A DNA stretch of 64,000 nt from Thiomargarita sp. (GTDB lineage Bacteria; Pseudomonadota; Gammaproteobacteria; Beggiatoales; Beggiatoaceae): positions 15,567-79,566 of the forward strand of contig DYNN01000002.1 in the NCBI GenBank assembly GCA_020721045.1, read 5' to 3'. Made by a program: the position numbers and the translations under genes. The first letter of the stretch is position 1. Every line of letters starts with the position of its first letter. Of the stretch, positions 43,711-64,000 are shown piece by piece. Below the pieces are notes generated by a model, which ran no database searches, was not told the origin of the DNA, and worked only from the letters and a program-made list of their open reading frames with translations.

Positions 43711-43824
43711 AAAGTATGTCTGATTGCTAGAAAATAATGGTGATATTGTCAAGGTGTGGTAGACTATAACCAACTATTTTTGTCAATAATCATCTTTTTA
43801 TTGAAGGCTAACCTTATGTCAATA
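43709..43824 (+). repeat. ~115-nt MCP leader and first codons (the functional copy)
   Basis: Counterpart of 42181-42296. Confidence 0.75.
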
Positions 43825-45523: not shown

Positions 45524-47203
45524 TTATATGTTACCCGCAATTTTTTTAGTAATGACCCATTGCTGCGCAATTGAGAGTATGTTGTTAACCACCCAATAGA
45601 GTACCAAGCCCGATGGGAAAAACGCAAAAAATACTGTAAATATAAAAGGAAGTATCAACATGACTTTTTGTTGTACTGGATCAATTGGCATTGGATTTAA
45701 TCGATGTTGTAATAACATGGTTGCGCCCATGACCAAAGGTAAAATAAAATAAGGGTCTGGCGTTGATAAATCATTAAGCCATAGTATAAAACTAGCCTGT
45801 CTCAATTCCACACTTTCCAATAGCACCCAATATAATGCAATAAATACGGGGATTTGTACCAAAATTGGTAAGCAACCGCCCAATGGATTCACTTTTTCCT
45901 TTTTGTACATTTCTAACATGGCTTGATTTAAGCGTGCCTTGTCACTGCCAAAACGTTCTTTCAATTGTACTAAACGTGGTTGTAACCGTCGCATATTTGC
46001 CATAGAGCGATAGCTAGTTGCCGATAATTGGAAAAAAGCCAGTTTAATCAAAATAGTTAGAATAACAATAGACCAACCCCAATTTTTTACTAAGTCATGA
46101 ATGGCTTCTAAACCCCAAAATAGAGGTTGTGCAATAAACCATAACCAACCGTAATCGACGGTTAAATCTAATCCGGGCGATAACTCTGCAAGTTTGTCTT
46201 GAACTTTTGGACCAACGTAGAATGAAAAATCAAAGCTTTCTTGGCTATGTGGTGCTACAGTTTGTTCAGGTCCATACATGCCAATGACGTAGCGAGTGCC
46301 ATCGGGGATAAAATTGCTGTAATATTTGAATGCTTTATCTTTATTTGGAATCCAAGCCACCACAAAATAGTGTTGTAACATCGCTGCCCAACCACCTTTC
46401 CAATCTTCACGTTTTTCGTGCTCTAACTTACCGTCTTTAATGTTATCAAAGGTAATTTTTTCATACAAATTGTCAGGGCTGGAAAGAGCTGCACCGGTGT
46501 AAGTGTAGATGAAACTATTACCTGATTTGATGCTAGGTGTACGTTGTAGTTGTCCATATAAATGCCCTTTCCATGCTTGCTCGGCATTATTTTGCACAAT
46601 ATATTTTACATCAATAATGTAACTATCACGATGAAAAGTATAAATTTTATTGATATTTACATGTTCATTTTGCCAAGTCAGCGTCACTGCTAATTCATTG
46701 GCATCTTGCTTCATGCGATAGTCAGTATTCGCAGTTTGATAAATTGCTTGGTGCGTAGGCGCAATTTCTTTAGGCAATAAACCAGATTGGGCAATGAAAA
46801 AATTGGGTAGGGTATCATCCATCAAGTGAAAAGGCTTATCCAATTGGTCAATGGCAATCGGAAATTTAATTAATTCAACATGACGTAAATCGCCACCAAC
46901 AGTATCGATTTCTATTTTAAATACATCGGTTTCTACATGAATTCGGGTATGTGTAGGCACTAAGCGTTGCACTTGAGTCACAGGTAATTCAGGCAATGCA
47001 GACATTGTACTATTGTTTGCTACTTCATCCGTATTAGGTAATAAATCAATCGCCGAAGAAGGTGTTGTGCTAGGTATGTCAGTCACTGCTGTTGGTGTGC
47101 TTGTGATCGATGGTTTGGGCCCATAATCAACTTGCCAAGCTTGATACAACAATAGCAAAATGAAAAACCATCCTACAATGAGAATGAGTCTAAAGTTATC
47201 CAT
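45524..47203 (-). CDS. yidC: membrane protein insertase YidC
   Basis: 559 aa. N-terminal TM, large periplasmic domain, and a C-terminal core (NPLGGCLPILVQIPVFIALYWVL). Conserved position after yidD-rnpA-rpmH. Confidence 0.9.
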   Translation of the reverse strand: MDNFRLILIVGWFFILLLLYQAWQVDYGPKPSITSTPTAVTDIPSTTPSSAIDLLPNTDEVANNSTMSALPELPVTQVQRLVPTHTRIHVETDVFKIEIDTVGGDLRHVELIKFPIAIDQLDKPFHLMDDTLPNFFIAQSGLLPKEIAPTHQAIYQTANTDYRMKQDANELAVTLTWQNEHVNINKIYTFHRDSYIIDVKYIVQNNAEQAWKGHLYGQLQRTPSIKSGNSFIYTYTGAALSSPDNLYEKITFDNIKDGKLEHEKREDWKGGWAAMLQHYFVVAWIPNKDKAFKYYSNFIPDGTRYVIGMYGPEQTVAPHSQESFDFSFYVGPKVQDKLAELSPGLDLTVDYGWLWFIAQPLFWGLEAIHDLVKNWGWSIVILTILIKLAFFQLSATSYRSMANMRRLQPRLVQLKERFGSDKARLNQAMLEMYKKEKVNPLGGCLPILVQIPVFIALYWVLLESVELRQASFILWLNDLSTPDPYFILPLVMGATMLLQHRLNPMPIDPVQQKVMLILPFIFTVFFAFFPSGLVLYWVVNNILSIAQQWVITKKIAGNI

Positions 47204-47206
47204 AAT

Positions 47207-47434
47207 TTATTGATTTTCCTTACGCTCCGGGACAGGATCAATACCGCCCGGATGCCAAGGATGACAGCGGGACAGTCGTTTAATACTGAGAAATAAACCA
47301 CGCCAAACCCCATGTTCAGCAATGGCTATTTGTGCATACTCAGAACAACTTGGATAGAAACGACAATGCGAGCCTAACCACGGACTAACAATGAGTTGAT
47401 AACCACGAATGAGTAAAATTAAGATTTTTTGCAT
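47207..47434 (-). CDS. yidD: membrane protein insertion efficiency factor YidD
   Basis: [27 protein letters not shown] signature. The ATG at 47434 (MQKIL) is preferred over the TTG at 47455. Confidence 0.8.
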
Positions 47435-47793
47435 CGACGTGTCACAAATTGCCAATGCTGAATTAGCGCTTCTCGCAGAGTTTGATTATCTGCCTGTGCT
47501 ATATCATTTTTAATCATGACAATACAATCTAATCCAGCCAATTGATGTTGGTGATGTCGAAAACTTTCGCGTGTGAGCCGCTTAACGCGATTTCGTTTTA
47601 CAGCTTGTTTAATTCGCTTTTTAGCGATAACTAACCCTAACCGAGCGTGAGTTAATCCATTTAATCTGACTAGGAGAGTAAAATATTTATCGCTTGATTT
47701 ATAAGCTTTTTCAAAAACAAATTGATAATCTGCCGGTTTTAGCAAACGTTGATGTCGCTGAAACCGGTAAGATGGCTTGATTGAAGTCATCAA
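47419..47793 (-). CDS. rnpA: ribonuclease P protein component
   Basis: 124 aa, basic, with the [15 protein letters not shown] (RNR) motif. Overlaps the rpmH stop by 4 nt. Confidence 0.85.
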
Positions 47794-47924
47794 GCACAGA
47801 GTCTGAGCCGACCTTTAGCACGACGTGCTTTGAGTACATCTCTGCCGCCTTTGGTTGCCATACGTGACCGGAAACCGTGACGACGTTTACGTATTAATTT
47901 ACTAGGTTGATAGGTTCTTTTCAT
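47790..47924 (-). CDS. rpmH: 50S ribosomal protein L34
   Basis: [42 protein letters not shown], 44 aa. The ORF-track N-terminal extension to 48020 is rejected. Confidence 0.92.
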
Positions 47925-48224
47925 GAGATCATTACCAAAGCCATGACAAACTTTAAATTTTATTGTTTTATTTAGGTGTTTGTCAAGCAATTTATTAAAA
48001 AACTTTTTTATTTTACCCAAAATAGCAACAACAACAATTAATTAACTCGTTTTTTTAAAGTTGATTCTAAATAAAAAATAATATAATTATCATAGTGTTA
48101 TATTAATAAACAAGCAGTTATTGCCTAACTGGATAAGTAAGTTTATCAAGTATACACTGTTTTGTAATTTACTGAGATAGATAAATAACCGTATTTATTA
48201 TAAATAATTACATTTTAGATATTT

Positions 48225-49574
48225 ATGTCACTCATCAACGGAGGTTTAGTGGTGGCAGCATCGTTGTGGAATCAATGTGTTAAGCATCTTGAAAGGGAAT
48301 TGTCTAGCCAAGACTTCAATATGTGGATTCGTCCGCTACAAGCGATTGAAGCGAGTGGCTGTTTACGTTTGCTTGCGCCTAATCAATTTGTACTTGATTG
48401 GGTTAAACAACATGTTCAATTGCGTATAGAGGAGATATTGCGTCGTTGCCAACCAAAGTCTACCCCCAGTTTAATTTTACAAATTGGTAGCCGACAACAA
48501 TTTACTTCCCAATCTAAGCCGCTCATGACGGCAGTGGGTGGTCATACTGTGACGACACCGATTAATCGACTCAATTCGCAGTTGACATTTTCAACTTTTA
48601 TTTTGGGAAAATCCAATCAACTCGCGCGCGCGGCTGCACTGCAAGTCGCAGAACAGGGTGGATATAATCCTCTGTTTATTTATGGCGGTGTTGGGTTAGG
48701 TAAAACGCATCTGATGCAAGCAATTGGTAACCAAATTATTGCTAAACGTCCTCAGGCGAAAGTTCTATATTTACGTTCTGAACAGTTTGTCAATGAAATG
48801 GTTAAGGCATTGCGTGAAAAGAAAATTAATGAATTTAAGCAATTTTACCGTTCTTTAGATGCTTTACTAATTGACGATATCCAATTTTTTGCGCATAAAA
48901 TACAATCACAAGAAGAATTATTTCATACTTTCAATGTATTACTGGAAGAAAAAAAGCAAATTATCTTAACTGGCGATCGACCACCACAGATTATTGCAGG
49001 TTTGGAAGATCGCTTAAGGTCCCGTTTTAGTTGGGGTTTGACCGTTAATGTGATGCCACCTGATTTTGAAACTCGCGTCGCTATTTTGATGGCAAAAGCG
49101 CAATTTGCCCATGTACATTTACCCGAGGAAGTCAGTCAATTTATTGCAGATCATGTGCATTCAAATGTAAGAGAATTGGAAGGGGCTTTGCATCGTTTGA
49201 TTGCAACTGCGCGTTTTATGCAGCAAACGGTGACTTTAGAAAGTGCGCAGACCACTTTACAAGATTTGTTACATTTTCATTCACAATTAGTTACATTGAA
49301 TGGTATTCAAAAAACAGTCGCTGAATATTTTAAAATTCCCATTGCTGATTTGTCTTCACGTAGACGACATCGTTTAGTCGCACGTCCACGACAAATTGCC
49401 ATGTTTTTGTCTAAGGAATTAACTCAACACAGTTTGCCCGAAATTGGTAAAGCTTTTGGTGGGCGTGATCACACCACAGTGATGTATAGCTGCAAAACAA
49501 TCGCTAAATTAAAGACAGCTGATCATCAAATAAATCAAGACTATACTAATTTGTTGCAATTGCTTTCAGCATAG
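48225..49574 (+). CDS. dnaA: chromosomal replication initiator protein DnaA
   Basis: AAA+ Walker A GGVGLGKTHLMQAIGN, LIDDIQFF, and the C-terminal DNA-binding domain (RPRQIAMFLSKELTQHSLPEIGKAFGGRDHTTVMYSCK). The exact start is uncertain. Confidence 0.9.
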   Translation: MSLINGGLVVAASLWNQCVKHLERELSSQDFNMWIRPLQAIEASGCLRLLAPNQFVLDWVKQHVQLRIEEILRRCQPKSTPSLILQIGSRQQFTSQSKPLMTAVGGHTVTTPINRLNSQLTFSTFILGKSNQLARAAALQVAEQGGYNPLFIYGGVGLGKTHLMQAIGNQIIAKRPQAKVLYLRSEQFVNEMVKALREKKINEFKQFYRSLDALLIDDIQFFAHKIQSQEELFHTFNVLLEEKKQIILTGDRPPQIIAGLEDRLRSRFSWGLTVNVMPPDFETRVAILMAKAQFAHVHLPEEVSQFIADHVHSNVRELEGALHRLIATARFMQQTVTLESAQTTLQDLLHFHSQLVTLNGIQKTVAEYFKIPIADLSSRRRHRLVARPRQIAMFLSKELTQHSLPEIGKAFGGRDHTTVMYSCKTIAKLKTADHQINQDYTNLLQLLSA

Positions 49575-50054
49575 TTTAACCTTGAATATTCGTGAACTAG
49601 TTAATTTGAAAAATATTTTAATTAGCAATTCCATGAAAAACTGGTAAAATTAATTTACTTGCAATGAAAAACAAGTTGTGAAAAAATGCCTCATTCATTA
49701 ATTTATCGCTGTTGCAAGAAATTAAATCAATTTTGCATAGCGATATCTAGTATTACGCAACTTAATTTTTGCTGGGTAATATCAGGAAGTATAATGAATG
49801 ATGTGAATTGATTTACCACATTAAGTCAATAAGATGTTGGCTATACAAGTGCTGATTGTATACGACTGAAATGGTAACATCTATCTCACCCAAACATATA
49901 CCGTAAGTTCGACGGTATCGGTTGTATGACTTTAAAAATCAAGTAGAAAATAAGCTGAACATGTTATTCGTGTGTTTTAGGCAGTTTTTATAATTATAAA
50001 TATGGTTAAGAACTAAATATCTGTGATGATCTACCACAATTAGGAGGAAGATAA

Positions 50055-52868
50055 ATGGCTTGGAGTTTTCCTAGTCTTTCGCGCCGCTCTTTTTTAAAAG
50101 CTTCAGGCTATGGAGGAGCTGCGCTTTCTTTGTTGCAACCACTGGGTTTTGTGGGGAAAGCAACAGCTGATGCTACCTCAGGAGAAGGCAAAGAAGATAT
50201 TAGTTACACAATTTGTAACTTTTGCTCATCTTTGTGTAATGTAAAAGTAACTTCCCGTACCACAAATGGTGTTAAACGAGTTGTTAAGTTAGATGGAAAT
50301 CCTAATTCTACCTTAAATCGCGGTAAAATGTGCGCACGGGGTCAAGCAGGCTTACGTCAAACTTACGATTCCGATCGATTCAAAAAACCCATGATCCGAG
50401 TTGAAGGCACCAAGCGCGGTGAAATGGAGTTTCGTGCTGTTGAATGGGACGAAGCATGGAAATATATTGAAGATCGCATGAAAGCTGCCAAGATTCAGCC
50501 TTGGGAATGGACGATGATTGGGGGCTGGACATCTTGTGTATTTTACATGAATTGGTCTGTTCCTTTTGCATTGACTAGTGGTATTCCTAATATTGTTGCT
50601 TCTCCGATGCAACACTGTGTAACAACAGGACATTTAGGGACTGATTCCGTTACCGGTAACTTTAATATTCACGATGAAATTTTACCAGACTACGATAATG
50701 CAAAATACATTATTTATGTTGGTAATAATTCCTCTATTGGTGCTGTATCGACCTGTCGGGTAGTCCGTTTTGCGCAAGGACGTAAAAATGGTGCTAAAGT
50801 TGTTGTTTTAGACCCACGCTTATCAGAAACCGGTGCTAAAGCTGATGAATGGATACCAATTCGTCCGGGTACTGACTTAGATTTCTGTTTGGCTATGTTG
50901 AGAGAAATGCTCAACAAAAAATTGTATGATGCTGATTTCCTCAGAACGCATACCAATATGCCATTTTTGACCTATAAAGACGATAATAATCAATGGCAAT
51001 TAGTCAAAGATGTTGAAGGTCATCCAATGGTGTTGCGTGCTAATACTTCTGAAATTCACGTATTACCTGCTTACAGCAATGAAAATTTAACTGATGTTGC
51101 TGGCAATACTTTCTATCCCGCGTTGTACGCGCCTATACCTCAAGGTGTTCTTGTCCCAGAAAATGCAGTAGCGGGCGTAGGTAAACCAGCTTTTACTGTT
51201 TTACAAGCACAATTGGCTGAAATTGCCCAATGTACTCCTGAATGGGCTGAAAAAACAACTGGTATTCCCGCAGAAACCATTCGTCGTATTGCGCATGAAT
51301 TTGGTAGCAGTCGTCCTGCTTTAATCGATCCAGGTTGGCATGGTGCACGTTATGGCAATATTATGATGACGCGTCGCGTACAAGCTATGATTCAAGCCCT
51401 AAATGGTGGGATTGATAAAGAAGGCGGTTGGGTTATGAGCGGTGAATTCCATCATAAAGCGTTAAAGCAGCATGAAGCCAAGTTGGCGGGTAAAGATTTA
51501 GGTTCTCCTTTAGCTAACAAAGCTGGCATGGACTTCGCGATGGTGGTTGTGGGTGCATTTTCTGATCCTAATAATTTTGCACATGGGCATCCGGGTTGGG
51601 CATGGGCTTATTCTCAACAACAAAAAGCTGAAGGTAAACAAGGTATTGCTTTACCGGTTCTTGCTGATGAAGGATTAAAAGAATCCGTTGAAGGTAAGGT
51701 CAAGTGGAAAGGTGAACCCTATTTAACACGCGCTTTGTTTGTGAATGCAGCCAATCCTGTACGTCATTATTATCCTGATACTTATTGGAAGGAAATGATG
51801 CAACACGAGAATATGGAGCTTATTGTTGCATTGGATGTATTGCCTTCTGATACTACGCCTTATGTTGATGTGATTTTACCCAGTAGTACTTACCTTGAAC
51901 GTGATGAACCTAATATTTATGGTAATGGGGTTAATCAAGATTTAGCCATGACAACTCGTTACGCTGCGATTGATCCGCTTTATGATTCTTGGGAAGCACC
52001 TGATGTTTTGTTGAAATTGACTGAATTAATTCATGGTAAAGAGAATGCGATTGAAGATTTGACTAAACATATGGAAGGTCTTACTGGAATGCCAGCGCAA
52101 GCAATGGTAGCAGTTCATAAAGAATTGAAAGAAGCGGGTAAAGCCAGTCCTTTCAGTGCGGCTTGTCGTAAGGTAGCTATCGCGGAAGCGGCTAAGCGTG
52201 TTCATGTTTCTCCTGAAGAATTTGATAAAACTTTACGTGAAAAAGGTGTCTATCACGAAGAAAATTGGCGCGATTTGTTAGAACATGCGGCAGTTCCTCA
52301 TGTGATTCCTGCGGTGACTGCCAGTGGTCGTATTGAGTTTTTCAGTAGTTTATTTGATATGTTGCGTGGACAAGGTAATATTGGTCCTCATTTCAGTGTG
52401 TTGGCAACTCATATCCCATCTGAATGTCGTCAAGGTCAAACGATGGATCAGCCTCTTAATGAAGATGAGTTTTACTTTGCCTATGGTAAGGTGCCGACTG
52501 TTTCTTATGGTTCAACCAATAGCAATAATCCTGTTTTGGCTGCAATTAATACGTTGAAGAAAGACATTTATATGGGCGTGTGGATGCATCCGGATCGTGC
52601 TGCAAAATTGGGTATTAAAACCGGTGATAAAATTCATTTAACCAATACTTTGTCTAATCAAGAAGCAGATGGACACGCTTACGTGACTCGCAAAGTGCGT
52701 CCTGATACCCTCTTTTTGCATTCTGCATTTGGGGTTGAAAATAAACAACTGACTCGCAGCTATGCCATGGGCGGTACTGCAACTAATAAGCTAATTCCTC
52801 ATACCGTAGAACCCGTTGTCGCTGGTTTTCGTTCGCAGGAATTTACTCTTCGTGTTAAAAAAGCATAA
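50055..52868 (+). CDS. Tat-exported molybdopterin (bis-PGD) oxidoreductase catalytic subunit, Psr/Phs/Arr/Arx/Ttr-type; subfamily unresolved
   Basis: RBS AGGAGG at 50042-50047. Twin-arginine signal LSRRSFLKASG...ATADA. FS0 cluster motif CNFCSSLC-x31-CARG. 937 aa with molybdopterin-oxidoreductase-like sequence throughout. Confidence 0.85.
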   Translation: MAWSFPSLSRRSFLKASGYGGAALSLLQPLGFVGKATADATSGEGKEDISYTICNFCSSLCNVKVTSRTTNGVKRVVKLDGNPNSTLNRGKMCARGQAGLRQTYDSDRFKKPMIRVEGTKRGEMEFRAVEWDEAWKYIEDRMKAAKIQPWEWTMIGGWTSCVFYMNWSVPFALTSGIPNIVASPMQHCVTTGHLGTDSVTGNFNIHDEILPDYDNAKYIIYVGNNSSIGAVSTCRVVRFAQGRKNGAKVVVLDPRLSETGAKADEWIPIRPGTDLDFCLAMLREMLNKKLYDADFLRTHTNMPFLTYKDDNNQWQLVKDVEGHPMVLRANTSEIHVLPAYSNENLTDVAGNTFYPALYAPIPQGVLVPENAVAGVGKPAFTVLQAQLAEIAQCTPEWAEKTTGIPAETIRRIAHEFGSSRPALIDPGWHGARYGNIMMTRRVQAMIQALNGGIDKEGGWVMSGEFHHKALKQHEAKLAGKDLGSPLANKAGMDFAMVVVGAFSDPNNFAHGHPGWAWAYSQQQKAEGKQGIALPVLADEGLKESVEGKVKWKGEPYLTRALFVNAANPVRHYYPDTYWKEMMQHENMELIVALDVLPSDTTPYVDVILPSSTYLERDEPNIYGNGVNQDLAMTTRYAAIDPLYDSWEAPDVLLKLTELIHGKENAIEDLTKHMEGLTGMPAQAMVAVHKELKEAGKASPFSAACRKVAIAEAAKRVHVSPEEFDKTLREKGVYHEENWRDLLEHAAVPHVIPAVTASGRIEFFSSLFDMLRGQGNIGPHFSVLATHIPSECRQGQTMDQPLNEDEFYFAYGKVPTVSYGSTNSNNPVLAAINTLKKDIYMGVWMHPDRAAKLGIKTGDKIHLTNTLSNQEADGHAYVTRKVRPDTLFLHSAFGVENKQLTRSYAMGGTATNKLIPHTVEPVVAGFRSQEFTLRVKKA

Positions 52869-52892
52869 GCGCAGTTTTATAGGGGAAAATTA

Positions 52893-53519
52893 ATGACAAC
52901 TCCACATTATGCGATGGTGATTGATTTAAATACTTGTGTTGGTTGCAATGCATGTATGGCAGCTTGTTCCATGGAAAACCAAACACCGGTTTGGGACAAT
53001 AAATGGCGTACTTATGTTCATGATATGGAAATAGGTGCAGGTACTGAAAATGAAGTAAAACGACGTTTCTTTCCACGTTTGTGTAATCATTGCGATAATC
53101 CACCTTGCATGAGTGTGTGCCCAACAGGGGCTACTTACAAGCTGGATAATGGTATCGTGTTGGTTAATGATGAAATGTGCATGGGATGTCGTGCTTGTGC
53201 TATGGCTTGTCCTTATGATGCACGCTATGATGTGACTTATGATGATCTGGATAAAGGTACTGAATTCTACGGAGAACTACACTTCCGCACCTCACCCAGT
53301 GTCGATAAATGCTCGTTTTGTGCGCACCGCGTGATGAAAGGGCTTAAACCCGCTTGTGTGGAAACCTGCGTAGGTTCTGCACGTTTGTTTGGTGACATGA
53401 ACGATCCTAAAGATGAAGTAGCTAAGATTGTTGCCAGTGGTGTGGCAAAACCATTGATGGCGCATTTAGGTACTCGACCCAATGTCTATTACATCAGCGA
53501 TTTAGAGAGGAACGTCTAA
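52893..53519 (+). CDS. 4Fe-4S ferredoxin-type electron-transfer subunit (PsrB/DmsB-like)
   Basis: Four Cys groups: CVGCNACMAAC, CNHCDNPPCMSVCP, CMGCRACAMACP and CSFCAHR...PACVETC. No signal peptide of its own. Confidence 0.9.
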   Translation: MTTPHYAMVIDLNTCVGCNACMAACSMENQTPVWDNKWRTYVHDMEIGAGTENEVKRRFFPRLCNHCDNPPCMSVCPTGATYKLDNGIVLVNDEMCMGCRACAMACPYDARYDVTYDDLDKGTEFYGELHFRTSPSVDKCSFCAHRVMKGLKPACVETCVGSARLFGDMNDPKDEVAKIVASGVAKPLMAHLGTRPNVYYISDLERNV

Positions 53520-54523
53520 TGGAAGGTATGTTTTATTCAACCCAAGAATTATGGACTTGGTGGATCGCTATTTATCTGTTTTTAGGCGGTTTAGGGGGTG
53601 CTTTAGTCGTTGTCAGTGGACTCACCAATATGTATGTGAAAGAACATAAGGAACTGGTCTTATGGGCTAATATTTCTTCTTTGATCATGTTGAGCGTTGG
53701 ATCGTTTATGCTATTTTTGCATTTACTACATCATATTGCAGTTATCAATGTGTTGAATCCAATGGTACTCATTAATAAACCTGATGCTTGGATTAGCTGG
53801 GGTACACAATTCATTGTATGGATGATGGTATGGAGTTTTGTCTACACTTATCCCTACTTAGTTGACAGTAAATTCTGGCGTGGCATACCTATTATTGGTG
53901 GATTGATTGGTTTATTTGGCTGGGTTGGTAATTTATCCTTGAGATTTCATAAACTAATCGGTTGGTTAGCAGTCATCAATGGGATTGGTACCGTACTTTA
54001 TACAGGTTTGTTGCTGCAATCTTTTCCAGCGGTTGCTTTGTGGCATAATCCGGGCGTACCCTTGTTATTTATCGTATCCGCATTTTCCACCGCGATGGCG
54101 TTCTTGTTAATTGCTTTGTATGTATTTATCAAGAATCCAGAAGATCATGGTTTGAAAGTTCTGTTTGAACGCTCTGACGTTATTTTAATTGGGATTGAAT
54201 TACTGATTATTTTTGTGTTCTTCCAATTTACCACTTACGGACTCGAATCTGCCCGTTACACTGCAAAGATATTATGGAATGATATGGGTTGGATTATTGG
54301 TTTTGTGGGTTTTGGTTTGTTAATTCCTTTCATTATTGAATTTAGAGGAGTAACCAAAGGTTGGAAAGGTAGCGCGCCGATTGTCTTAGCTGCAATACTT
54401 GTACTTTCAGGTGGTTATTTACTACGCCACTACTTCATGTATGCTGGTGTATACGAACGTCCTTATCCAGCAATTAATAGTACCCATCATCTACAAATGG
54501 ATGGCTCAGTGCAAACACAATAA
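53519..54523 (+). CDS. NrfD/PsrC-like integral-membrane quinone-interacting subunit
   Basis: 334 aa, about 8 predicted TM helices. Its start overlaps the B-subunit stop (TAATG). Confidence 0.85.
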   Translation: MEGMFYSTQELWTWWIAIYLFLGGLGGALVVVSGLTNMYVKEHKELVLWANISSLIMLSVGSFMLFLHLLHHIAVINVLNPMVLINKPDAWISWGTQFIVWMMVWSFVYTYPYLVDSKFWRGIPIIGGLIGLFGWVGNLSLRFHKLIGWLAVINGIGTVLYTGLLLQSFPAVALWHNPGVPLLFIVSAFSTAMAFLLIALYVFIKNPEDHGLKVLFERSDVILIGIELLIIFVFFQFTTYGLESARYTAKILWNDMGWIIGFVGFGLLIPFIIEFRGVTKGWKGSAPIVLAAILVLSGGYLLRHYFMYAGVYERPYPAINSTHHLQMDGSVQTQ

Positions 54524-54568
54524 TAGTTTTAGATAAAAGTTAATACTGTTATTTTTCGACTTTTTCAG

Positions 54569-54608
54569 GAACTGGTAATTTTTATCGATTGCCAGTTCTA
54601 ATTTTTTG
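54569..54608 (+). terminator. hairpin plus T-run between the molybdoenzyme C subunit and the torD-like gene (possible attenuating terminator)
   Basis: GAACTGG (54569-54575) pairs with CCAGTTC (54592-54598), followed by TAATTTTTTG. Confidence 0.45.
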
Positions 54609-54619
54609 CCTCTAATCAA

Positions 54620-55153
54620 ATGAATAGCATGTTACCTGATAACATCATCCCCCAACAACTTTCTTTATTCGCCGGCTTGCTTGCGGCACCAGGTCTTGAT
54701 AGTTTAGCCATTATAGAAGAACTCGCCCAAACCAACCCTTGGTTACAAGATGTCCCTGAAGAACTTGTTCAATGGGGATTACCGCGTTGGCAAGGAGAAC
54801 ATACTCGCTTATTTATTAATGGACACCCTAAAACTGTATGTCCTCCATTTGAATCGTCTTATATACATGGACAACAAAATGGGAAAGCTTGTAGTGATAT
54901 TTTGGCTTTTTATTATCAAATTGGTTTGCAACCCGTTGAAGGTGTGTTTCCTGATTATTTAGGCACATTATTGGAATGCGCTGCTTATTTAGCCCAACAA
55001 CAACCCGTTGATAGCGCATCGTGGGAAATATTGTGGCAGCAACACTTAGTACGTTGGGTACCACGATTTGCCCGTGATTTAGAAACACACAGTCGATTAC
55101 GTTTGTATCAACAATTAGGCAAACAATTACAGGAGCTTTTCCCCAGTGTCTAA
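54620..55153 (+). CDS. TorD/DmsD/NarJ-family redox-enzyme maturation chaperone
   Basis: EHTRLFINGHP..CPPFESSY, ILAFYYQIGL and FPDYLGTLLECAAYL follow the TorD-family pattern. 177 aa. Confidence 0.75.
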   Translation: MNSMLPDNIIPQQLSLFAGLLAAPGLDSLAIIEELAQTNPWLQDVPEELVQWGLPRWQGEHTRLFINGHPKTVCPPFESSYIHGQQNGKACSDILAFYYQIGLQPVEGVFPDYLGTLLECAAYLAQQQPVDSASWEILWQQHLVRWVPRFARDLETHSRLRLYQQLGKQLQELFPSV

Positions 55154-55697
55154 TTGGCAATTGATTGAAACTAATGAAGAAGAATTGATTTCTACGGTAA
55201 TTGAAACATTTACCCAACTTTATCAAAATTACTTTATTCACGAGGAATTAGTAAACCATAATTTGCCCATTGAAATTCGCGCGTTTCGTCAAATGGATAA
55301 CTGGTTTATTTTTTTATTATTAACCCCTTGGACATTAGCTAGACTTTTTATTCCTAATCAAGACCCGAATATTGAAATTCCGACAGGTTGGACTGCACAA
55401 GAACGTGTAAATATGCCGATAATAGTGATTGGACCGGCGGTTTTTTTATCTATTTTAGGTGGCAAAGAACGTGCACATTTAAATTATACGCCGCGATTAG
55501 GTCACTACTTAATTCAGCCTCTCATTCAATCTATGGCAGAATTTAACCAACCAGATGAGGCGTTTGCTGCTTGGAATGCGGTGATTACGACTCGTAACAA
55601 AGTGATTGAAGAACAAAAGAAAAAATGTGAATGGCAGCAAGAAGTGTCACGGCGAGAATTTTTTGCTAAATTGCGTCGTCGCTCAGAATTAAAATAA
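55146..55697 (+). CDS. HybE-like ([NiFe]-hydrogenase Tat-proofreading chaperone family) protein
   Basis: The GTG start lies 10 nt after AGGAG and overlaps the torD-like stop by 8 nt. LPIEIRAF..WFIFLLLTPWTLARLFIP and the C-terminal SRREFFAKLRRRS parallel E. coli HybE (..VITPWMLSAVIFP.., ..GRRALLFGRRS). The E. coli sequence is recalled from memory. Confidence 0.6.
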   Translation: MSNWQLIETNEEELISTVIETFTQLYQNYFIHEELVNHNLPIEIRAFRQMDNWFIFLLLTPWTLARLFIPNQDPNIEIPTGWTAQERVNMPIIVIGPAVFLSILGGKERAHLNYTPRLGHYLIQPLIQSMAEFNQPDEAFAAWNAVITTRNKVIEEQKKKCEWQQEVSRREFFAKLRRRSELK

Positions 55698-55699
55698 TC

Positions 55700-56170
55700 A
55701 TGGATATCAAAATACCACAAATTTATGTTTTATTAGTATTTGATGGTTTACATATGCTAGTCCCACAGCATGAAGTGCAATCTGTTGAAATTATTGCAGA
55801 TGTACATATAACTTCAATGTATACTGGTGCTGTGGGTTGGTTTGCGCATGGGCATGGACAAGAATCTCCAGTGTATTGTTTATCAGAAGAAATGACGTTA
55901 TTACTTGATTTACCTAAGAATCGAGAATTTTTTATTTTACTCAAATCCTCAGATGCAATAATCATTGGGCTTGCCTGTGATGAAGTAGAAACATTACATG
56001 CTAAAAATGATCATCTTTATTTGCAAGATTTACCTATTGTAATGAAATTACCTGGCTCACCTATCAGCCGATTGGTACGTTATCAGGATAAAATTGGTTG
56101 TATTTGTGAAGGTGAAGTGCTGCGAAAATATATTCTAAATTTATCGGAAACTTTTGTTAAAGGGCAATAA
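55700..56170 (+). CDS. CheW-like single-domain protein
   Basis: 156 aa. VLLVFDGLHMLVPQHEVQSVEII ... ESPVYCLSE ... FFILLKSSDAIIIGLACDEVETL ... follows the CheW two-beta-barrel pattern. It starts 2 nt after the previous stop. Confidence 0.55.
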   Translation: MDIKIPQIYVLLVFDGLHMLVPQHEVQSVEIIADVHITSMYTGAVGWFAHGHGQESPVYCLSEEMTLLLDLPKNREFFILLKSSDAIIIGLACDEVETLHAKNDHLYLQDLPIVMKLPGSPISRLVRYQDKIGCICEGEVLRKYILNLSETFVKGQ

Positions 56171-56193
56171 ATTGCAATAAAACACCTTATAAT

Positions 56194-57705
56194 ATGAAAA
56201 AAATAATTTGGTTAGTCATTTTTATTGTTTATTCGCCCTATATTTATGCAGTACATACATTAATATTTTTATCAGATACAACCACTTCTGATGAAATTAA
56301 TCAATTAGTTACACAAGCCCCGCTGGTTTGTGATTTACGTCCACTACCTTGGTTAGTACTAGAAACTCCTGATATTGAATCACTGTTTACGACCACCCGC
56401 GGTATTCGTAAGCGTTGGTCTGCGCAAGAAAATATCACGGGTTATTTCGCCGCGACTCCAAATGATCCTTTATATTCAAAACAATGGCATTTAGCAAATA
56501 TTGGCATTCCAGAATTATGGCAATTAACCCAAGGTGATGGTGTGGCAATTGCCTTGTTAGATAGTGGTGTTGATCCAGATCATCCTGATTTAAAAGGACA
56601 AATATCATTCGATGAAGGGTATGATTTTGGTGATAATGATGCTTATCCTTATGATAATAATGGACATGGGTCAGCGATGGCAGGATTGATGGTTGCTCGT
56701 TGCTATAATCAACAAGGCGGGTGTGGTGTTGCCCCACAAGCTTCAATCATTCCTTATAAAATAAGTGGTTACGAAGCCAATAAATTTTTAGCCGCCGATC
56801 TTGCCTGTGCGATTAAAGCTGCAGCAGACAGTTATGCTAAAATTCTTTCACTGAGTTTAGTGTTAGAAACAGCCAGTCAAGCAGTCACTGATACCTTAGT
56901 CTATGCAAAAATGAAAGATAAAACCATTGTAGCTGCTGCGGGTAATGAGGGAAAATCAGTGGCATTTCCTGCCTATTTACCTTGGGTAATCAGTGTGGCA
57001 GCCAGTGATAAAACCGGAGAGCGTTTACCATTTAGCAACTACGGTGATGCGCTATTTATCACTGCCCCGGGTATTGATTTACAAACAACGTTAGTTGGCA
57101 CAGATTATACAACACAATACACTGGAACATCGGCTGCAGCAGCTTTAGTCAGTGGAACATTAGCATTATTGAGCGCACAATATCCCACATTGACAGCCCA
57201 AGAATTGATAACACTTTTATTGACATCCAGTAAATACGAAAAATATCAAGGATTTAACAAAGAATACGGCTTTGGATATTTGCATACACCTATCCCAGAT
57301 GATCATAATGAACTGCAATTTTACCCGACAACAACGAATGTCTATCGAATCGGAGACACCGTATCATTGGAATTATTAATTACCCAAATAGCGAAACAAG
57401 AAGGTGATCTTTATTTACATCTCAATGTTCCGATTAATAATCAAGGCAATAGAACTGGTTTTTTTAAAGTATGGCACAGTATCGACACTATTGCTCCAAT
57501 CCCTTATAATTACCTCTTCATGAGCCCTTATTTTTTTGATAATGATGTCTTTTTACCGCTGTACGGTTCATCTTTTGCATTACTGGGTGATGGCAAGATA
57601 GACAAAACTCTACATTTAGGTGTTTATGAATTATCCGCACAACTGGTCATGTTAAATGGTATTCAAAGGCAAACACGTAAAATTGTTTGGCTAGAAACAC
57701 AATAA
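56194..57705 (+). CDS. secreted subtilisin-like serine protease (peptidase S8) with C-terminal beta-rich domain
   Basis: Signal peptide MKKIIWLVIFIVYSPYIYA. Catalytic motifs ALLDSGVD (Asp), NGHGSAMAG (His) and GTSAAAALVSG (Ser). Confidence 0.85.
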   Translation: MKKIIWLVIFIVYSPYIYAVHTLIFLSDTTTSDEINQLVTQAPLVCDLRPLPWLVLETPDIESLFTTTRGIRKRWSAQENITGYFAATPNDPLYSKQWHLANIGIPELWQLTQGDGVAIALLDSGVDPDHPDLKGQISFDEGYDFGDNDAYPYDNNGHGSAMAGLMVARCYNQQGGCGVAPQASIIPYKISGYEANKFLAADLACAIKAAADSYAKILSLSLVLETASQAVTDTLVYAKMKDKTIVAAAGNEGKSVAFPAYLPWVISVAASDKTGERLPFSNYGDALFITAPGIDLQTTLVGTDYTTQYTGTSAAAALVSGTLALLSAQYPTLTAQELITLLLTSSKYEKYQGFNKEYGFGYLHTPIPDDHNELQFYPTTTNVYRIGDTVSLELLITQIAKQEGDLYLHLNVPINNQGNRTGFFKVWHSIDTIAPIPYNYLFMSPYFFDNDVFLPLYGSSFALLGDGKIDKTLHLGVYELSAQLVMLNGIQRQTRKIVWLETQ

Positions 57706-57953
57706 ACTGTCTTTTTGTTGTAAATTAGAGTAAAAAACACCTAAGTGATGCAAAAAACTACATTTGCACATGAAGCCTCAATTGACGCACTTTTTAAAGG
57801 ATAGTTAATTTTGTGAAAAAATTATAAGAAACTTAAATATGCGCATAAATACTATCTTTTTATAAAAAATGAACTTATAATCAATTTATTAAGCAAAATA
57901 TTTTCGTGATATCCAACGGTGAAAATAAAAAAATTACCAAAAGGCTTGCAATA

Positions 57954-57981
57954 TTGATTGCTTCTGTGCAATATTTATAGT
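57954..57981 (+). promoter_or_regulatory. candidate sigma-70 promoter of the large surface-protein gene
   Basis: TTGATT (57954-57959), a 16-nt spacer, then TATAGT (57976-57981). This would give a ~170-nt leader. Confidence 0.35.
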
Positions 57982-58155
57982 ATGTGTTTGGACAGGTGGA
58001 CTTTAGATAAGTTAGTACATAAAGGTTTTGAGATTCAACAAAAAGCTTAACTATGATATACTTTTTTATGAAATGCTGCTTGTCAAATCGGTAAAGCGTC
58101 TGAGAATTAGTTAAGATGGTTGCTGATCAATTTAAATTTTTTGGAGATTGTTAAT

Positions 58156-61100
58156 ATGAACATGAAAAAAACGGCATTTGCCTCTGCCTTAGCGCTGGCG
58201 TTAGCCAGTAGCTCTGCGTGGGCGGCAGACTGTGCTGATCCAAGTGTTGGTTTGGGTAAAGATGTGAACGTAGGCTTTACCACTTACACATGTAGCGGTC
58301 AGTTTATCCTTGATAAAGTAACTGTTAGAGCAGGTGAGACTGTCAACCTCGCATTGATGGGACTGAATAAAAATAATGAAGTTGATCGCTTTGGTGAACA
58401 AGGTGGTTCTGTCATTATGGGTGTAGTAAACACAGTTCAAGGGCAGATTAGTGCTGTTCCTGTGGGTGGTGGGGTGTGGAATGAGCAAGGCGATAAAACG
58501 CCAGGTGCCACACCTAATGATTCTAAACCGGGATATGGTAATTTTGCTTCTCAAGTGAGATATATTCGCTTAGATCAAGGTAACGGTCAAATCAGCATCT
58601 ACTATCCACCGGAAGCGACCGGGGAAGATATTTTAACCCTCACTTTACAAGAAAGAAGAGCGACTGCCAACGGTGGTGTAGAGTTCAACGTCATTACCAA
58701 AGCAGAAAAAGTCGTTAAAATTGAACCACCTTCTGATAATCCCGGTGCTTTATATATTACCGCGTTCATGGCGCCTCTCGGTGATGAGAAGGGTATGAGC
58801 GATACGGATTCAGGGGATGGCATCTATGGTACGATGACAGCTGGTGCTTCCGGCGCTGAAGTTGTGATCGTTGCACGTAACGATAGAGCAGCTGGCGCAA
58901 TTACGCTTACTTTGAGCAAGGGTGATACTAAACTAACTTATACCGGTAAGATGACACGTGGCGTTGCCAAGATTAACTTAGATTCCAATGTTAAGTTAGC
59001 TGGTTCCTACTACATCAAAGCTGAGTTTGCTGGATTTGATGGTAGCAGTGTAGGTATGGTTAACGCTGATAAAGTCTATGTATATCCAACAGGTAAACCG
59101 ACTAAACTGAAACTCACCAGTGTTAAAAGCCGTATTAGTGAAAAAGTAGAAGGTGGTGGCACTGAAGTGTGGGGACAATTATTAGATGTATACGGTAACT
59201 CCACCAGTAACCGTGCTGGTAGTGAAGTGCGTTTCATCATCAAAGATGGAAATGGCATTGCTAGCAGTTCTGCACTAGATTTAACTGTTCCAGCCTCTGA
59301 TCCCAATGGTATGGCAGTTGCCAGAACGAATGATAATATTTTGGGCAACGTGGCGGGTGAAGTCAAAGAAGGAATTGTTTCTTTAGTGGCAACAGCTGCT
59401 CATGCAGATAATACACCTAACAGTGCAATTGCTGCTTCCGATCCACTTGAAATCCAAGTAGTTAAGGAGTCTGTCACCGCTGTTTTACACTCTGAACTTG
59501 CAGCTATGGTTGGGCTTGGTACCTCTCCTCTTGCAGGAAATGAGTTTAAAGCTTTCGTTATTGGTACAACTGATGGTGCAAATCCTGGTCAAATTGTACT
59601 CAAGAACTTGACTACAAAGGAAGAACTTACTGTAAACCCTAATGCAGATAAAGAAGTTGAAGCCCTCTTCAAAAAGGCAACTGCTGGCAATCGTTATCTA
59701 TTATCTGATAAGCAAGGTAAGTATGGACAAACTGTAGTTGTTGGTACTGGTATTAGCACCGCAGCGTCAACTTTGGTCGATGTTCGCAATGCGCATGGTG
59801 AAGTACAAACTAAGATTATTCCTTGGTTTGACAACGATGCCAAAACCTACGTTACTGTGGTACCAGAAATTGCATTCAATATGACTGATGCCTTTGGTAA
59901 TCAAACGACACCTGGTATTGAAACTGTCACAGGTTCTTTCTACCTGAAATCTTCCAATGGTACAGTGGCTTATAACACACTTGAAGGTGATCGTGGTGTA
60001 CCAAGCCGTGCACCTGGTTATTATCCTACGGTGACTTATACCGCAATGGGTGAAAGTGCGTTTGTGGGTGAAGATGTTATTGATGTAACCTTTACCAAAC
60101 CTGGTTTGGGTACCACGGAAACGAAGATCAAATCACCAATTGAAGGTATTAACAAGCTCAAAGCCTTTGGTGCTTACATCGAACAACTCAAGATTCCAGT
60201 AAACAGCGAAGTTGCTTTAGCAGTGGAAGCTTTGGGTACAGACGGTGATGTCTTTACTGATGTTGCTTCTGCCAGAGTGAAATTCAATATCTCTGAAGAA
60301 GATGGTTTGCTCGAATCCTTCAAAATGTATGAAGTTTACGGTGAAACCGATTCATTGACTTCATGGGGCGGTCAAGAAGTGTTTGACGGACAAACTTTGA
60401 ACTTCGGCGAATCTGGTGGACGTAAAGTCTTCCAAGTGGAAGGTGGACCTAAAGAAGGTAAATTTACTGTTACTTTCTCGGATATTAACGAAGCTGGTGT
60501 TTCTCCTGTCACGTTAGAATTTGAAGTCACTGGTCAATTAGTTGAACCAGTATGTAGCGCAACTGATCCAACTGCCTGTAAAACTGAAGAAGAATGTACT
60601 GCAGTCAATGGTGCGTGGGATGCAGCGACTAGCTCTTGTAGTGTTAAAGATGTAACGGGTTGTAGTGCTGAAAACCCATCTGCGTGTACTGATGAAGCGA
60701 GCTGTGTAGCTACAGGTGGTGCTATTTATCTTGAAGGTTATGCGGGTGTAACTGACGGTTGTTATGGTGTACCTACTGATCCAACTGAAACCGTTTCAGA
60801 TGTTATTTACAAAGATGGCACGCGTACCACTATAGATGGTTACTTTGCGGGTGGCGTACTCGTCGATGGTAAATTCTCTAAGAGTGAAAAAGCGGGTTCT
60901 GATCTAGGCAAGGTGACGATTGGTTTCAACTATAAGCCAGTGGCAGAGCATGTTGGTCAAGATGTGCACTTGTTAACAGTTGTTGGTGTTGAATCTCCTG
61001 ATACCGGTCCAATCGATGGTAGCTTTGATACCAGTTACTTCGGTTTGAGTGAATTCATCGGTGATTTCTATCCTGTGAATATTTATGCAGACAACCATCC

Positions 61101-61362
61101 TGATGATGAAGAATTGCCTGAAGGACAAATCAATCAAACAGGTTATTGGGCTGATGAAGTTGCTAAGTTAGCTGAAAAACCCTATCTTAAGGGTGTAACC
61201 TTACAAGCTGATGAACAAATCGTATTAGTACCGGGCGATTTGGGTGATTTGGGTGGTTTCAAAGGCGCATTATACTTCTTCGTGGGTTATATGCTGACCG
61301 GTGGCGATGACAAAGATGCTATTGTGTTTAATAATCGTCCAATTGTTTTAATAGTTGAATAA
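58156..61362 (+). CDS. large secreted multi-Ig-like surface protein (S-layer/sheath/adhesin candidate)
   Basis: GGAG at 58143-58146, 9 nt before the ATG at 58156. Signal peptide MNMKKTAFASALALALASSSAWA. Repeated Big-like beta-sandwich motifs (LDVYGNSTSNRAGSEV, MTDAFGNQTTPG). A Cys-rich duplicated module near the C-terminus. Acidic, and the codons are rich in GGT/GCT/ACT/GAA. The TTG-start extension at 58120 is rejected. Confidence 0.8.
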   Translation: MNMKKTAFASALALALASSSAWAADCADPSVGLGKDVNVGFTTYTCSGQFILDKVTVRAGETVNLALMGLNKNNEVDRFGEQGGSVIMGVVNTVQGQISAVPVGGGVWNEQGDKTPGATPNDSKPGYGNFASQVRYIRLDQGNGQISIYYPPEATGEDILTLTLQERRATANGGVEFNVITKAEKVVKIEPPSDNPGALYITAFMAPLGDEKGMSDTDSGDGIYGTMTAGASGAEVVIVARNDRAAGAITLTLSKGDTKLTYTGKMTRGVAKINLDSNVKLAGSYYIKAEFAGFDGSSVGMVNADKVYVYPTGKPTKLKLTSVKSRISEKVEGGGTEVWGQLLDVYGNSTSNRAGSEVRFIIKDGNGIASSSALDLTVPASDPNGMAVARTNDNILGNVAGEVKEGIVSLVATAAHADNTPNSAIAASDPLEIQVVKESVTAVLHSELAAMVGLGTSPLAGNEFKAFVIGTTDGANPGQIVLKNLTTKEELTVNPNADKEVEALFKKATAGNRYLLSDKQGKYGQTVVVGTGISTAASTLVDVRNAHGEVQTKIIPWFDNDAKTYVTVVPEIAFNMTDAFGNQTTPGIETVTGSFYLKSSNGTVAYNTLEGDRGVPSRAPGYYPTVTYTAMGESAFVGEDVIDVTFTKPGLGTTETKIKSPIEGINKLKAFGAYIEQLKIPVNSEVALAVEALGTDGDVFTDVASARVKFNISEEDGLLESFKMYEVYGETDSLTSWGGQEVFDGQTLNFGESGGRKVFQVEGGPKEGKFTVTFSDINEAGVSPVTLEFEVTGQLVEPVCSATDPTACKTEEECTAVNGAWDAATSSCSVKDVTGCSAENPSACTDEASCVATGGAIYLEGYAGVTDGCYGVPTDPTETVSDVIYKDGTRTTIDGYFAGGVLVDGKFSKSEKAGSDLGKVTIGFNYKPVAEHVGQDVHLLTVVGVESPDTGPIDGSFDTSYFGLSEFIGDFYPVNIYADNHPDDEELPEGQINQTGYWADEVAKLAEKPYLKGVTLQADEQIVLVPGDLGDLGGFKGALYFFVGYMLTGGDDKDAIVFNNRPIVLIVE

Positions 61363-61395
61363 TCATTTAGTATTTTCAACTGAATAGTTGTATCT

Positions 61396-61435
61396 ACGAC
61401 ATGTCATAGCAATGTGGCATGTCGTTTTTTTTTTT
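61396..61435 (+). terminator. strong rho-independent terminator after the surface-protein gene
   Basis: ACGACATG (61396-61403) pairs with CATGTCGT (61418-61425), followed by a run of 11 T. Confidence 0.8.
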
Positions 61436-61446
61436 GGAGTAACGAA

Positions 61447-62208: not shown

Positions 62209-62238
62209 TGTTTAATTTTATTTAAAGTTCTAATTACT

Positions 62239-63846: not shown

Positions 63847-63859
63847 AAGAGATATCGTA

Positions 63860-64000
63860 ATGGTTCCATTTGTTTTGATGACATTTTTGCTTTTATGTTT
63901 CAATACTTGGGCAGATGAATTTACAAAAACTTCACAAGAAGCAATTCCTGTTAGTGTTACTATGACCGCCTTGCGCCAAATGCAGGCATTACAAAAAAAG
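63860..64000 (+). CDS. 5' fragment of a gene for a signal-peptide protein (runs off the window)
   Basis: The ATG at 63860 opens a frame that stays open to base 64000 (MVPFVLMTFLLLCFNTWA/DEFTK...). Function unknown. Confidence 0.4.
   Translation, partial: MVPFVLMTFLLLCFNTWADEFTKTSQEAIPVSVTMTALRQMQALQKK

Follow-up and report, generated by a model that had tools for sequence, protein, structure and literature searches.

How many genes belong to an operon when seven of them stand on one strand with short junctions, and can a chaperone of the HybE family, usually assigned to hydrogenases, be part of an operon that encodes a molybdoenzyme? Both questions are raised by a locus of Thiomargarita sp. 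(contig DYNN01000002.1), of which a stretch of 64,000 nucleotides (nt), referred to below as the window, was analysed. Its genes A to G encode the three subunits of a putative respiratory enzyme (A, B and C), a TorD-like and a HybE-like chaperone (D and E), a CheW-like protein (F) and a protease of the subtilase family S8 (G). An earlier note, made from the sequence alone, described A-B-C with a four-gene accessory tail; the seven same-strand genes, their coordinates (Table 1) and the lengths of the junctions are all as it gave them, namely, an overlap of 1 nt between B and C, a gap of 96 nt between C and D, an overlap of 8 nt between D and E, and gaps of 2 nt between E and F and 23 nt between F and G.

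Tat-proofreading chaperones (Tat, twin-arginine translocation) are usually viewed as enzyme-specific: NarJ, TorD and DmsD serve molybdoenzymes, HyaE and HybE serve hydrogenases. We consider it likely that the locus is a five-gene operon for a Psr/Phs-like molybdoenzyme with two dedicated chaperones, one of them of the HybE type; F is then a recent addition and G a neighbour. A Psr/Phs-type operon with a second, HybE-type chaperone is widespread and apparently undescribed.

Conservation of the operon and the nature of its enzyme

An alignment of E homologues was searched against 185,579 species-representative genomes, and the open reading frames (ORFs) of the 80 resulting loci were annotated by BLASTP against the window proteins. 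The genes A-B-C-D-E occur in this order on one strand in 51 of the 80 loci, and (A)B-C-D-E ends at a contig end in seven more. The others are D-E pairs with more than 4.5 kb of upstream sequence yet without A-B-C (six loci), D-E pairs with upstream sequence too short to judge (nine), and different arrangements such as E only or A-B-C on the opposite strand, as in L086 (seven). None of the 80 loci has a homologue of F or G near E, and clustering of all neighbouring ORFs gave no further conserved neighbour family in more than 11 loci. The E loci are found in Thiotrichaceae, Thioploca, Thiomargarita, Sulfuricella, Gallionella, Sideroxydans, Rhodocyclaceae, Chromatiaceae, Sedimenticola, Thiohalomonadaceae, Thiodiazotropha, Ectothiorhodospiraceae and Magnetococcales; the synteny spans at least ten named lineages.

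In 75 of 83 loci D and E form a pair, and the overlap of the two genes is 8 or 4 nt in 33 of 72. The same five genes were also called independently on metagenome contigs, in a Nitrosomonadales and in a Thioploca metagenome-assembled genome (MAG). Because the synteny holds in 51 of the 80 loci (and in the seven cut by a contig end), the junctions are tight and independent gene calls agree, A-B-C-D-E is a real and widely conserved operon, which occupies positions 50055-55697 of the window; D-E is its tightest sub-unit. Thus, the claim that the HybE-like gene belongs with the molybdoenzyme operon is borne out, and the four-gene accessory tail survives in its D-E half (with A-B-C in 51-58 of the 80 loci) and fails in its F-G half (none of 80). 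The earlier note had proposed a survey of gene neighbourhoods; in it D and E are syntenic with the enzyme genes, F is so only in two close lineages, and G is not, lying beyond an inversion breakpoint.

The D-E pair also occurs by itself. A stand-alone pair was called on another metagenome contig (L021), and A-B-C is absent from the 5-9 kb upstream of D-E in five loci (L025, L027, L032, L034 and L035); the hosts of these five are large sulfur bacteria (Pseudomonadota MAG115, Thiotrichaceae and Thiomargarita). The chaperones would there act in trans on an enzyme encoded elsewhere. In Magnetococcales nWRX1bin3 (L083, L096) and Thiomargarita CSMAG_1650 (L033, L063), B-C-D-E or D-E occurs twice on different contigs, which suggests paralogous operons.

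The putative catalytic subunit A exceeds the Pfam cutoffs of PF04879 (Molybdop_Fe4S4), PF00384 (Molybdopterin) and PF01568 (Molydop_binding). Its N-terminus reads MAWSFPSLSRRSFLK, after which a hydrophobic stretch and ATA-D follow. The Tat signal is S9-R-R-S-F-L-K (nt 50079-50099), and it is kept across orthologous loci as MAWxFPxL(S/T)RRxFLK; with the Pfam TAT_signal model A scores 19 bits, below the cutoff of 22.7. The FS0 4Fe-4S motif is C54-x2-C-x3-C-x27-C. The nearest solved structure by sequence is PsrA of T. thermophilus (2VPW_A, E 6e-66, phmmer), and the phmmer alignment places the Cys of 'MQHCVTTG' in A onto the Cys of 'VSLCTAPR' in 2VPW_A, which we take to be the molybdenum ligand. 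A has 937 residues against 765 in PsrA, with about 170 residues of insertions.

Among the NCBIfam models A scores best with PhsA (340 bits, cutoff 694); ArrA gives 130 bits (cutoff 1600) and TtrA 53 bits (cutoff 1750). Having missed these three equivalog cutoffs, A represents an unnamed clade; indeed, no gene from A to G reaches any NCBIfam equivalog cutoff. In the literature we found only generic 'psr/phs' labels for the clade, and metagenome studies probably call it polysulfide or thiosulfate reductase without evidence.

In B the four Cys groups are at residues 15, 64, 96 and 140. Its NCBIfam scores are 197 bits for DsrO, 189 for TtrB, about 171-172 for ArrB and 83 for HybA; the nearest solved structure is PsrB (2VPW_B, 164 bits). 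The alignments of B with DsrO and TtrB start only at residues 42-43 of the latter two. The identity of B to HybA in the generic ferredoxin core is 31%, and the Tat signal and the C-terminal extension of HybA are absent from B; presumably, B is exported bound to A. C matches PF03916 (NrfD) at 91 bits, has about eight hydrophobic segments and has no match by sequence in PDB; BLASTP finds no similarity of C to E. coli HybB. The Tat signal and FS0 motif of A, the four Cys groups of B and the approximately eight transmembrane (TM) segments of C, all proposed in the earlier note, were confirmed.

As part of the explanation that we consider likely, A-B-C would be an enzyme anchored in the membrane and facing the periplasm, from the Psr/Phs branch of the dimethyl sulfoxide (DMSO) reductase superfamily. 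A would combine the Tat signal and the FS0 cluster with a molybdenum bis-pyranopterin guanine dinucleotide (Mo-bisPGD) cofactor ligated by Cys; B, without a signal of its own, would cross the membrane together with A; C would be the NrfD-type anchor that interacts with quinone or quinol. Our most likely guess for the substrate is an inorganic sulfur compound, i.e., polysulfide, thiosulfate or sulfur.

It was earlier supposed that a hyb module (HybA and HybB with HybE) exchanged its hydrogenase dimer for a molybdopterin subunit, or else that a hydrogenase whose genes lie elsewhere uses the same B/C membrane module. The true homology of E to HybE agrees with such an origin, as does the hyb-type hydrogenase cluster found a few kb from the operon in two MAGs (L074 and L077). 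However, C is unlike HybB; B scores 164-197 bits with PsrB, DsrO and TtrB against 83 with HybA, and lacks the two terminal features of the latter; the best matches of A, B and C are all T. thermophilus Psr or Psr-type models. Only 4 of the 80 loci have motifs of the NiFe large subunit no more than 10 kb from E, so that sharing with a hydrogenase has no neighbourhood support. The hydrogenase clusters that were seen possess a HybE of their own, and one annotated example also has its own HybA and genes in the HybB position. The descent of B and C from a hyb module was rejected on the non-similarity to HybB and on the scores of B with Psr-type models, and we regard the whole proposal, in either form, as largely refuted and highly improbable.

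The two chaperones and the tail of the HybE family

D belongs to the TorD family, as had been proposed (PF02613 at 63.9 bits, cutoff 22.2). The HybE-like assignment of E also stands: PF11939 (HybE) is matched at 59.7 bits with a cutoff of 25. TIGR03993 gives 34.8 bits (cutoff 78.5) and PRK10465 gives 14.9 (cutoff 188), both below. In hhalign the E clade aligns with canonical HybE at a probability of 96.7% (E 4e-10, 151 columns), and the core motif (I/L)TPWM is common to both. With hidden Markov models the E clade scores 178-309 bits against itself and canonical HybE 137-347 against itself; scores across the groups are 5-42. Since the Pfam cutoff is passed, those of TIGR03993 and PRK10465 are missed and hhalign joins the two groups, E is by sequence comparison a HybE homologue over its full length, yet one of a distinct subfamily.

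HybE acts as a Tat-proofreading chaperone on E. coli hydrogenase-2, and this is, to our knowledge, the only characterised member of the family. One may therefore suppose that E is a hydrogenase chaperone which stands beside a molybdoenzyme operon by chance and serves a hydrogenase in trans; the automatic annotation of E, '[NiFe]-hydrogenase assembly chaperone HybE', says the same. We find this scarcely probable. E is translationally coupled to the TorD-like gene in most of the 72 loci compared and follows A-B-C in 51-58 of the 80 genomes, its subfamily is separate from the hydrogenase-linked HybE, and in L074 and L077, two of the four loci with NiFe motifs nearby, a second, canonical HybE adjoins the hydrogenase gene. 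On these three grounds (the separate subfamily, the operon synteny and the co-occurring canonical HybE) E as a stray hydrogenase chaperone was rejected.

In the two MAGs just named, which are gammaproteobacterial (L074 15437-20537, L077 9946-14836), A-B-C-D-E lies upstream of a cluster in which a HybA-like gene is joined by a NiFe large subunit of 567 aa and the canonical HybE, so that both HybE paralogues fall within 10 kb. The genus Thiodiazotropha also has both: in one genome a canonical HybE ends the operon hybO-hybA-hybB-hybC-hybD-hypC-hybE, and among other MAGs with E there are a full A-B-C-D-E (L080), D-E with a fragment of A (L082) and E only (L090). In L104 (Thiodiazotropha, 9739-11346) a gene for a methyl-accepting chemotaxis protein (MCP) is convergent to the canonical hybE directly after the hydrogenase operon; this is probably a coincidence.

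We found no description of a HybE-type gene in a molybdoenzyme operon in the open-access literature, where absence is no proof. Bay et al. 2015 (PMC4464133) report that genes of a DmsD/TorD subclade occur in operons of the bisC-hybA-nrfD type; there HybE is treated as a separate, unrelated hydrogenase chaperone, and its pairing with NarJ-family genes is not reported.

The E subfamily and canonical HybE have a C-terminal motif in common. All 79 complete sequences of E orthologues end in ...C-x-W-Q-x-E-V-S-R-R-E-F-F..., and SRREFF is invariant in the alignment of E homologues. HybE of E. coli MG1655 (L103 4312-4800) ends in ...AGRRALLFGRRSGENA, and (S)RRx(L/F)(L/F) is present within the last 40 residues of 114 of 120 canonical HybE proteins (P0275-P0394): 49 of 49 short forms and 65 of 71 long forms. 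The tails of the two groups align in hhalign. Judged from these alignments, the C-terminal SRRx(F/L)(F/L) is a feature of the whole HybE family, including the hydrogenase-linked HybE of sulfur oxidisers; the titles and abstracts that we found do not discuss it. The tail of E resembles the signal of A, and it may be a built-in mimic of a signal peptide.

Within the five-gene operon we presume that translation couples D to E and that both act in the cytoplasm as dedicated maturation factors of A-B-C. By analogy with E. coli DmsD and TorD, D most likely binds the signal peptide of A and aids cofactor insertion; by analogy with the action of HybE on hydrogenase-2, E most likely delays Tat export as long as the assembly of A, or of the A-B pair, is incomplete, and its SRREFF tail may be a competitor of the true signal. 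It is tempting to go further and propose that the HybE family is not hydrogenase-specific, its widespread TorD-coupled paralogue maturing a Psr-like molybdoenzyme, and that the tail imitates a Tat signal; taken as a whole, this proposal is tentative, and we hold it possible rather than probable. Such a mimic could occupy the binding site of its own protein, that of the partner chaperone, or TatBC, and the binding of a signal peptide would then be a competitive switch that times export.

The hairpin, the CheW-fold gene and the inverted block

The closest database relatives of the window are uncultured Thiotrichaceae, Thioploca and Thiomargarita, and two lineages are particularly close to it, with DNA identity of about 89% (L011-L014) and about 83% (L015 and L016). 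They are of use for the C-D, E-F and F-G junctions.

The hairpin and T-run that the earlier note placed in the C-D gap were found there. The terminator scan gives a stem of 13 bp (54568-54599) followed by AATTTTTT; the gap folds at -21.9 kcal/mol, z = -3.4 against shuffles. There are two terminator-like sites in 8.9 kb, one of them this hairpin, whereas shuffled sequence would give 7.1. L011 and L015 retain the T-run and the stem GAACTGG/CCAGTTC; the changes preserve the pairing, and the loop varies. Thioploca L022, with a C-D gap of 19 nt, lacks the hairpin, and 46 of 59 other genomes have a gap of no more than 20 nt. The lineages with the hairpin are the same three in which F follows E. We presume that the hairpin is a partial terminator or a processing or stability element, which in the window lineage probably lowers the expression of D-E-F relative to the structural genes A-B-C.

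As a single sequence F has no match in Pfam or NCBIfam, and no Pfam CheW match even at E<=10; however, PF01584 (CheW) matches eight of the 11 close homologues (best E 2.9e-4) as well as 46 of the 78 members of the extended family (best E 1.9e-7). The close homologues are only ten, all from Thiotrichaceae or Marithrix-type samples; the wider family has 458 representatives at E<=1e-3, of which 78 sequences were used for modelling. Profiles of F against PDB sequences gave no significant CheW match (best E 0.14-0.17), the top match being a designed scaffold, and a comparison of folds was therefore needed. The AlphaFold2 (AF2) model from 78 sequences has a pLDDT of 94.5 and a pTM of 0.88; with the 11 close homologues only, pLDDT was 40.7 and the model unusable. 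In Foldseek against PDB all 18 significant matches of the model are CheW or CheA-P5 (E 5e-7 to 4e-4, TM score 0.56-0.75), the next match having E 0.38. The model thus predicts that F has a true CheW fold, with two intertwined beta-barrel subdomains, and the CheW-like assignment, which single-sequence Pfam searches fail to support, is upheld by the family and by the fold.

The window, L011-L014 (protein 97% identical) and L015/L016 (78%) are the only cases in which F stands behind E, and its dN/dS there is 0.04-0.08, similar to that of D and E, which indicates purifying selection and, hence, a functional gene. Sequence comparison points to a lineage-specific insertion after E in the recent ancestor of these three lineages. 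Elsewhere, homologues about 50% identical to F directly follow 2100-2400-aa kinases of the Hpt-HATPase-CheW-REC (ChpA-like) type, once with an MCP gene upstream; F itself would be functional and, as a CheW-fold protein, paralogous to the ChpC-like adaptors whose genes stand behind those of ChpA kinases in related bacteria. In P. aeruginosa chpB separates chpA from chpC, a CheW-like gene two places downstream. A third genomic context of the family was seen in Candidatus Marithrix (L009 9057-10453, L010 920-2316), where the F homologue overlaps the stop of an FGE-sulfatase-family gene by 4 nt.

Could F couple the operon to a Chp-type pathway, rewiring or titrating the ChpA/MCP array, in the manner of energy taxis, once the cell has turned to this mode of respiration and F is expressed along with the enzyme? 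Its fold, the position of its ~50%-identical homologues, its retention under purifying selection after E in three lineages, the 2-nt E-F gap, and an MCP gene with three sensor kinases 5-10 kb upstream in the window are all consistent with this. Yet the arrangement is limited to one narrow lineage, the sulfatase neighbourhood shows that the contexts of the family vary, and the Arg-Gly of the canonical CheW motif 'NLRGV' is apparently not conserved in the F family (a weak alignment, judged by eye). The CheA or MCP adjacency seen at the ~50%-identical homologues is absent at the window gene, whose nearest MCP is 10 kb away, and the interaction would be read from gene context and a predicted fold. 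We consider the coupling unlikely, and it is likewise the less likely case that F ties the expression of the A-B-C enzyme to a ChpA chemosensory array; the addition of F to a complete five-gene operon is the reading we prefer.

G is an S8 protease, as had been supposed (PF00082 at 167.7 bits); it reaches 191.5 bits with the mycosin model, below the cutoff of 278.75, and has the triad D123/H158/S313 and a Sec signal. The window is collinear with L011 over 45806-56182, and its positions 56194-63998 map reverse-complemented to L011 19947-12164. One breakpoint falls in the F-G gap of 23 nt, and the other is outside the window, past its end; the inversion is stated relative to L011, and the ancestral orientation cannot be told. 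In L011-L014 the gene after F is a second S8 gene on the opposite strand, and the orthologue of G is 8 kb away. The 23-nt gap leaves no room for a promoter, so that G is probably transcribed in the window by read-through from F. Nevertheless, with the breakpoint in this gap and no homologue of G near E in 80 genomes, the read-through is an accident of the inversion, and G is a neighbour outside the operon: an unrelated secreted protease put on the same strand by the inversion of the adjoining block.

The block of five genes is inverted as a whole (window 56194-64000 against L011 10500-19947). The 1080-aa ORF has no Pfam or NCBIfam match and likely has an internal start with the Sec signal MKKTAFASALALALASSSAWA; this gene and the 264-aa gene stay beside the S8 gene in L011.

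The view that all seven genes are one unit, with F and the secreted protease G as a layer of sensing or processing on top of the enzyme, comes from the earlier note. In the window the genes do share a strand and short junctions, G is probably read through for want of room for a promoter, F is under purifying selection at the same position in three lineages, and an S8 gene lies beside F in both orientations of the block. Against it, neither F nor G occurs near A-B-C-D-E in any of the 80 other genomes, a different S8 gene on the opposite strand follows F in L011-L014, and the conserved partners of G, itself beyond the inversion breakpoint, are the 1080-aa secreted and the Pro-rich proteins, not redox genes. 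The proposal of such a layer was not upheld, and we believe it to be quite improbable.

The five-gene reading is itself open to several objections. The A-B-C clade is known from sequence alone; A is far below the PhsA equivalog cutoff and considerably longer than PsrA, so that it may differ from these in substrate and even in the direction of catalysis. The roles of D and E are drawn from E. coli DmsD/TorD and HybE by analogy, and the idea of the tail as a mimic from likeness of sequence. The terminator-like hairpin could make D-E-F a separate transcription unit in the window lineage. Finally, an S8 gene adjoins F in both arrangements of the block, and the purifying selection on F in three lineages leaves room for a functional link between F and the operon.

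The wider surroundings add the following observations. Profile matches place dnaA directly upstream of A, at 48225-49574, and the G+C content of the window is about 32-42%. In L015 the gene upstream of A (1755-2630) is not dnaA; thus, the adjacency seen in the window is not conserved. This L015 gene encodes a 291-aa protein with a Globin domain (weak) and TOBE domains (molybdate-binding type), a candidate regulator responsive to molybdenum or oxygen. Upstream of the operon in the window there are three sensor histidine kinases (39406-40359; 40435-42009 on the minus strand; 42338-43693, with PAS) and an orphan MCP (43756-45480); they just precede yidC-yidD-rnpA-rpmH-dnaA. A partial scan of the window found no CheA.

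Table 1. Features of the locus and of the adjoining inverted block (window positions)
Feature	Position	Strand	Description
A	50055-52868	+	Catalytic Mo-bisPGD subunit, 937 aa, Psr/Phs-like (predicted)
B	52893-53519	+	Four-cluster ferredoxin subunit, 208 aa, without own signal peptide
C	53519-54523	+	NrfD/PsrC-type integral membrane quinone-interacting anchor (predicted), 334 aa, ~8 TM
Hairpin and T-run	54568-54608	+	Terminator-like, in the 96-nt C-D gap
D	54620-55153	+	TorD/DmsD/NarJ-family redox-enzyme maturation chaperone (putative), 177 aa
E	55146-55697	+	HybE-family chaperone (putative), 183 aa, GTG start
Tat-signal-like motif	55647-55664	+	S168-R-R-E-F-F173, C-terminal part of E
F	55700-56170	+	Divergent single-domain protein of predicted CheW fold, 156 aa
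F-G inversion breakpoint	56183-56193		Relative to the nearest relative; junction sequences compared
G (block gene 1)	56194-57705	+	Secreted subtilase (S8), 503 aa; 85% identical to L011 S8_500, at the far end of the inverted block
Block gene 2	58120-61362		Secreted protein, 1080 aa, rich in Gly/Val/Ala/Thr
Block gene 3	61414-62208		Pro-rich protein, 264 aa, with signal peptide and PPPPP/KPxxP-rich region
Block gene 4			FAD flavoprotein, 535 aa, 99% identical to L011
Block gene 5	start ~63858		Second S8, dissimilar to G

Significance and comparison with known systems

We believe that the significance of the locus rests on the repurposed HybE paralogue and its Tat-like tail, and not on F or G. 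A HybE paralogue tied to a TorD-like gene and a molybdoenzyme operon in more than 50 species breaks the division of these chaperones by enzyme class, and the operon is a natural system for asking what each class contributes. The tail, being common to E. coli HybE, suggests a simple mechanism that is testable in a model organism. A-B-C represents a widespread uncharacterised Psr/Phs-like clade in environmentally important sulfur and iron oxidisers, its hosts including large sulfur bacteria, Sulfuricella, Sideroxydans and lucinid symbionts. The CheW-like and protease genes illustrate that same-strand packing in a single genome can mislead.

Among known systems, G is comparable with the mycosin-like subtilases (S8), with which it shares the Asp/His/Ser triad and the Sec signal; it is set apart by having no link to the redox operon and by its place in an invertible block with a large secreted protein. 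F has the predicted fold of CheW and of the ChpC/PilI-type adaptors of Chp (type IV pilus) clusters, and its homologues stand directly after a ChpA-like kinase as in those clusters. Unlike these adaptors, F is in a respiratory-enzyme operon, has no adjacent CheA or MCP, and gives no Pfam CheW score as a single sequence.

The three-subunit layout of A-B-C is that of PsrABC from T. thermophilus (PDB 2VPW) and PhsABC from Salmonella. The likeness extends to the Tat signal, the FS0 Cys motif and the aligned Cys as putative Mo ligand in A, to a signal-less four-cluster subunit B, and to an NrfD-type 8-TM anchor C. The differences are the two chaperone genes in the operon of the window type, the greater length of A than PsrA (by the insertions described above) and its PhsA score of about half the cutoff; moreover, the hosts are sulfur- and iron-oxidising lithotrophs, so that the physiological context of A-B-C may differ.

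In the operons described in PMC4464133, as here, a gene like D (PF02613) comes after a trio of molybdopterin, Fe-S and NrfD subunits; in ours it is, in addition, translationally coupled to a HybE paralogue. With E. coli HybE (the Tat-proofreading chaperone of hydrogenase-2; PDB 2KC5, PF11939), E has in common homology over the full length, the TPWM core and the SRRx(L/F)(L/F) tail. It differs in belonging to a separate subfamily, below the cutoffs of TIGR03993 and PRK10465, and in gene position: it comes behind a TorD-like gene in a molybdoenzyme operon, not in an operon for a hydrogenase.

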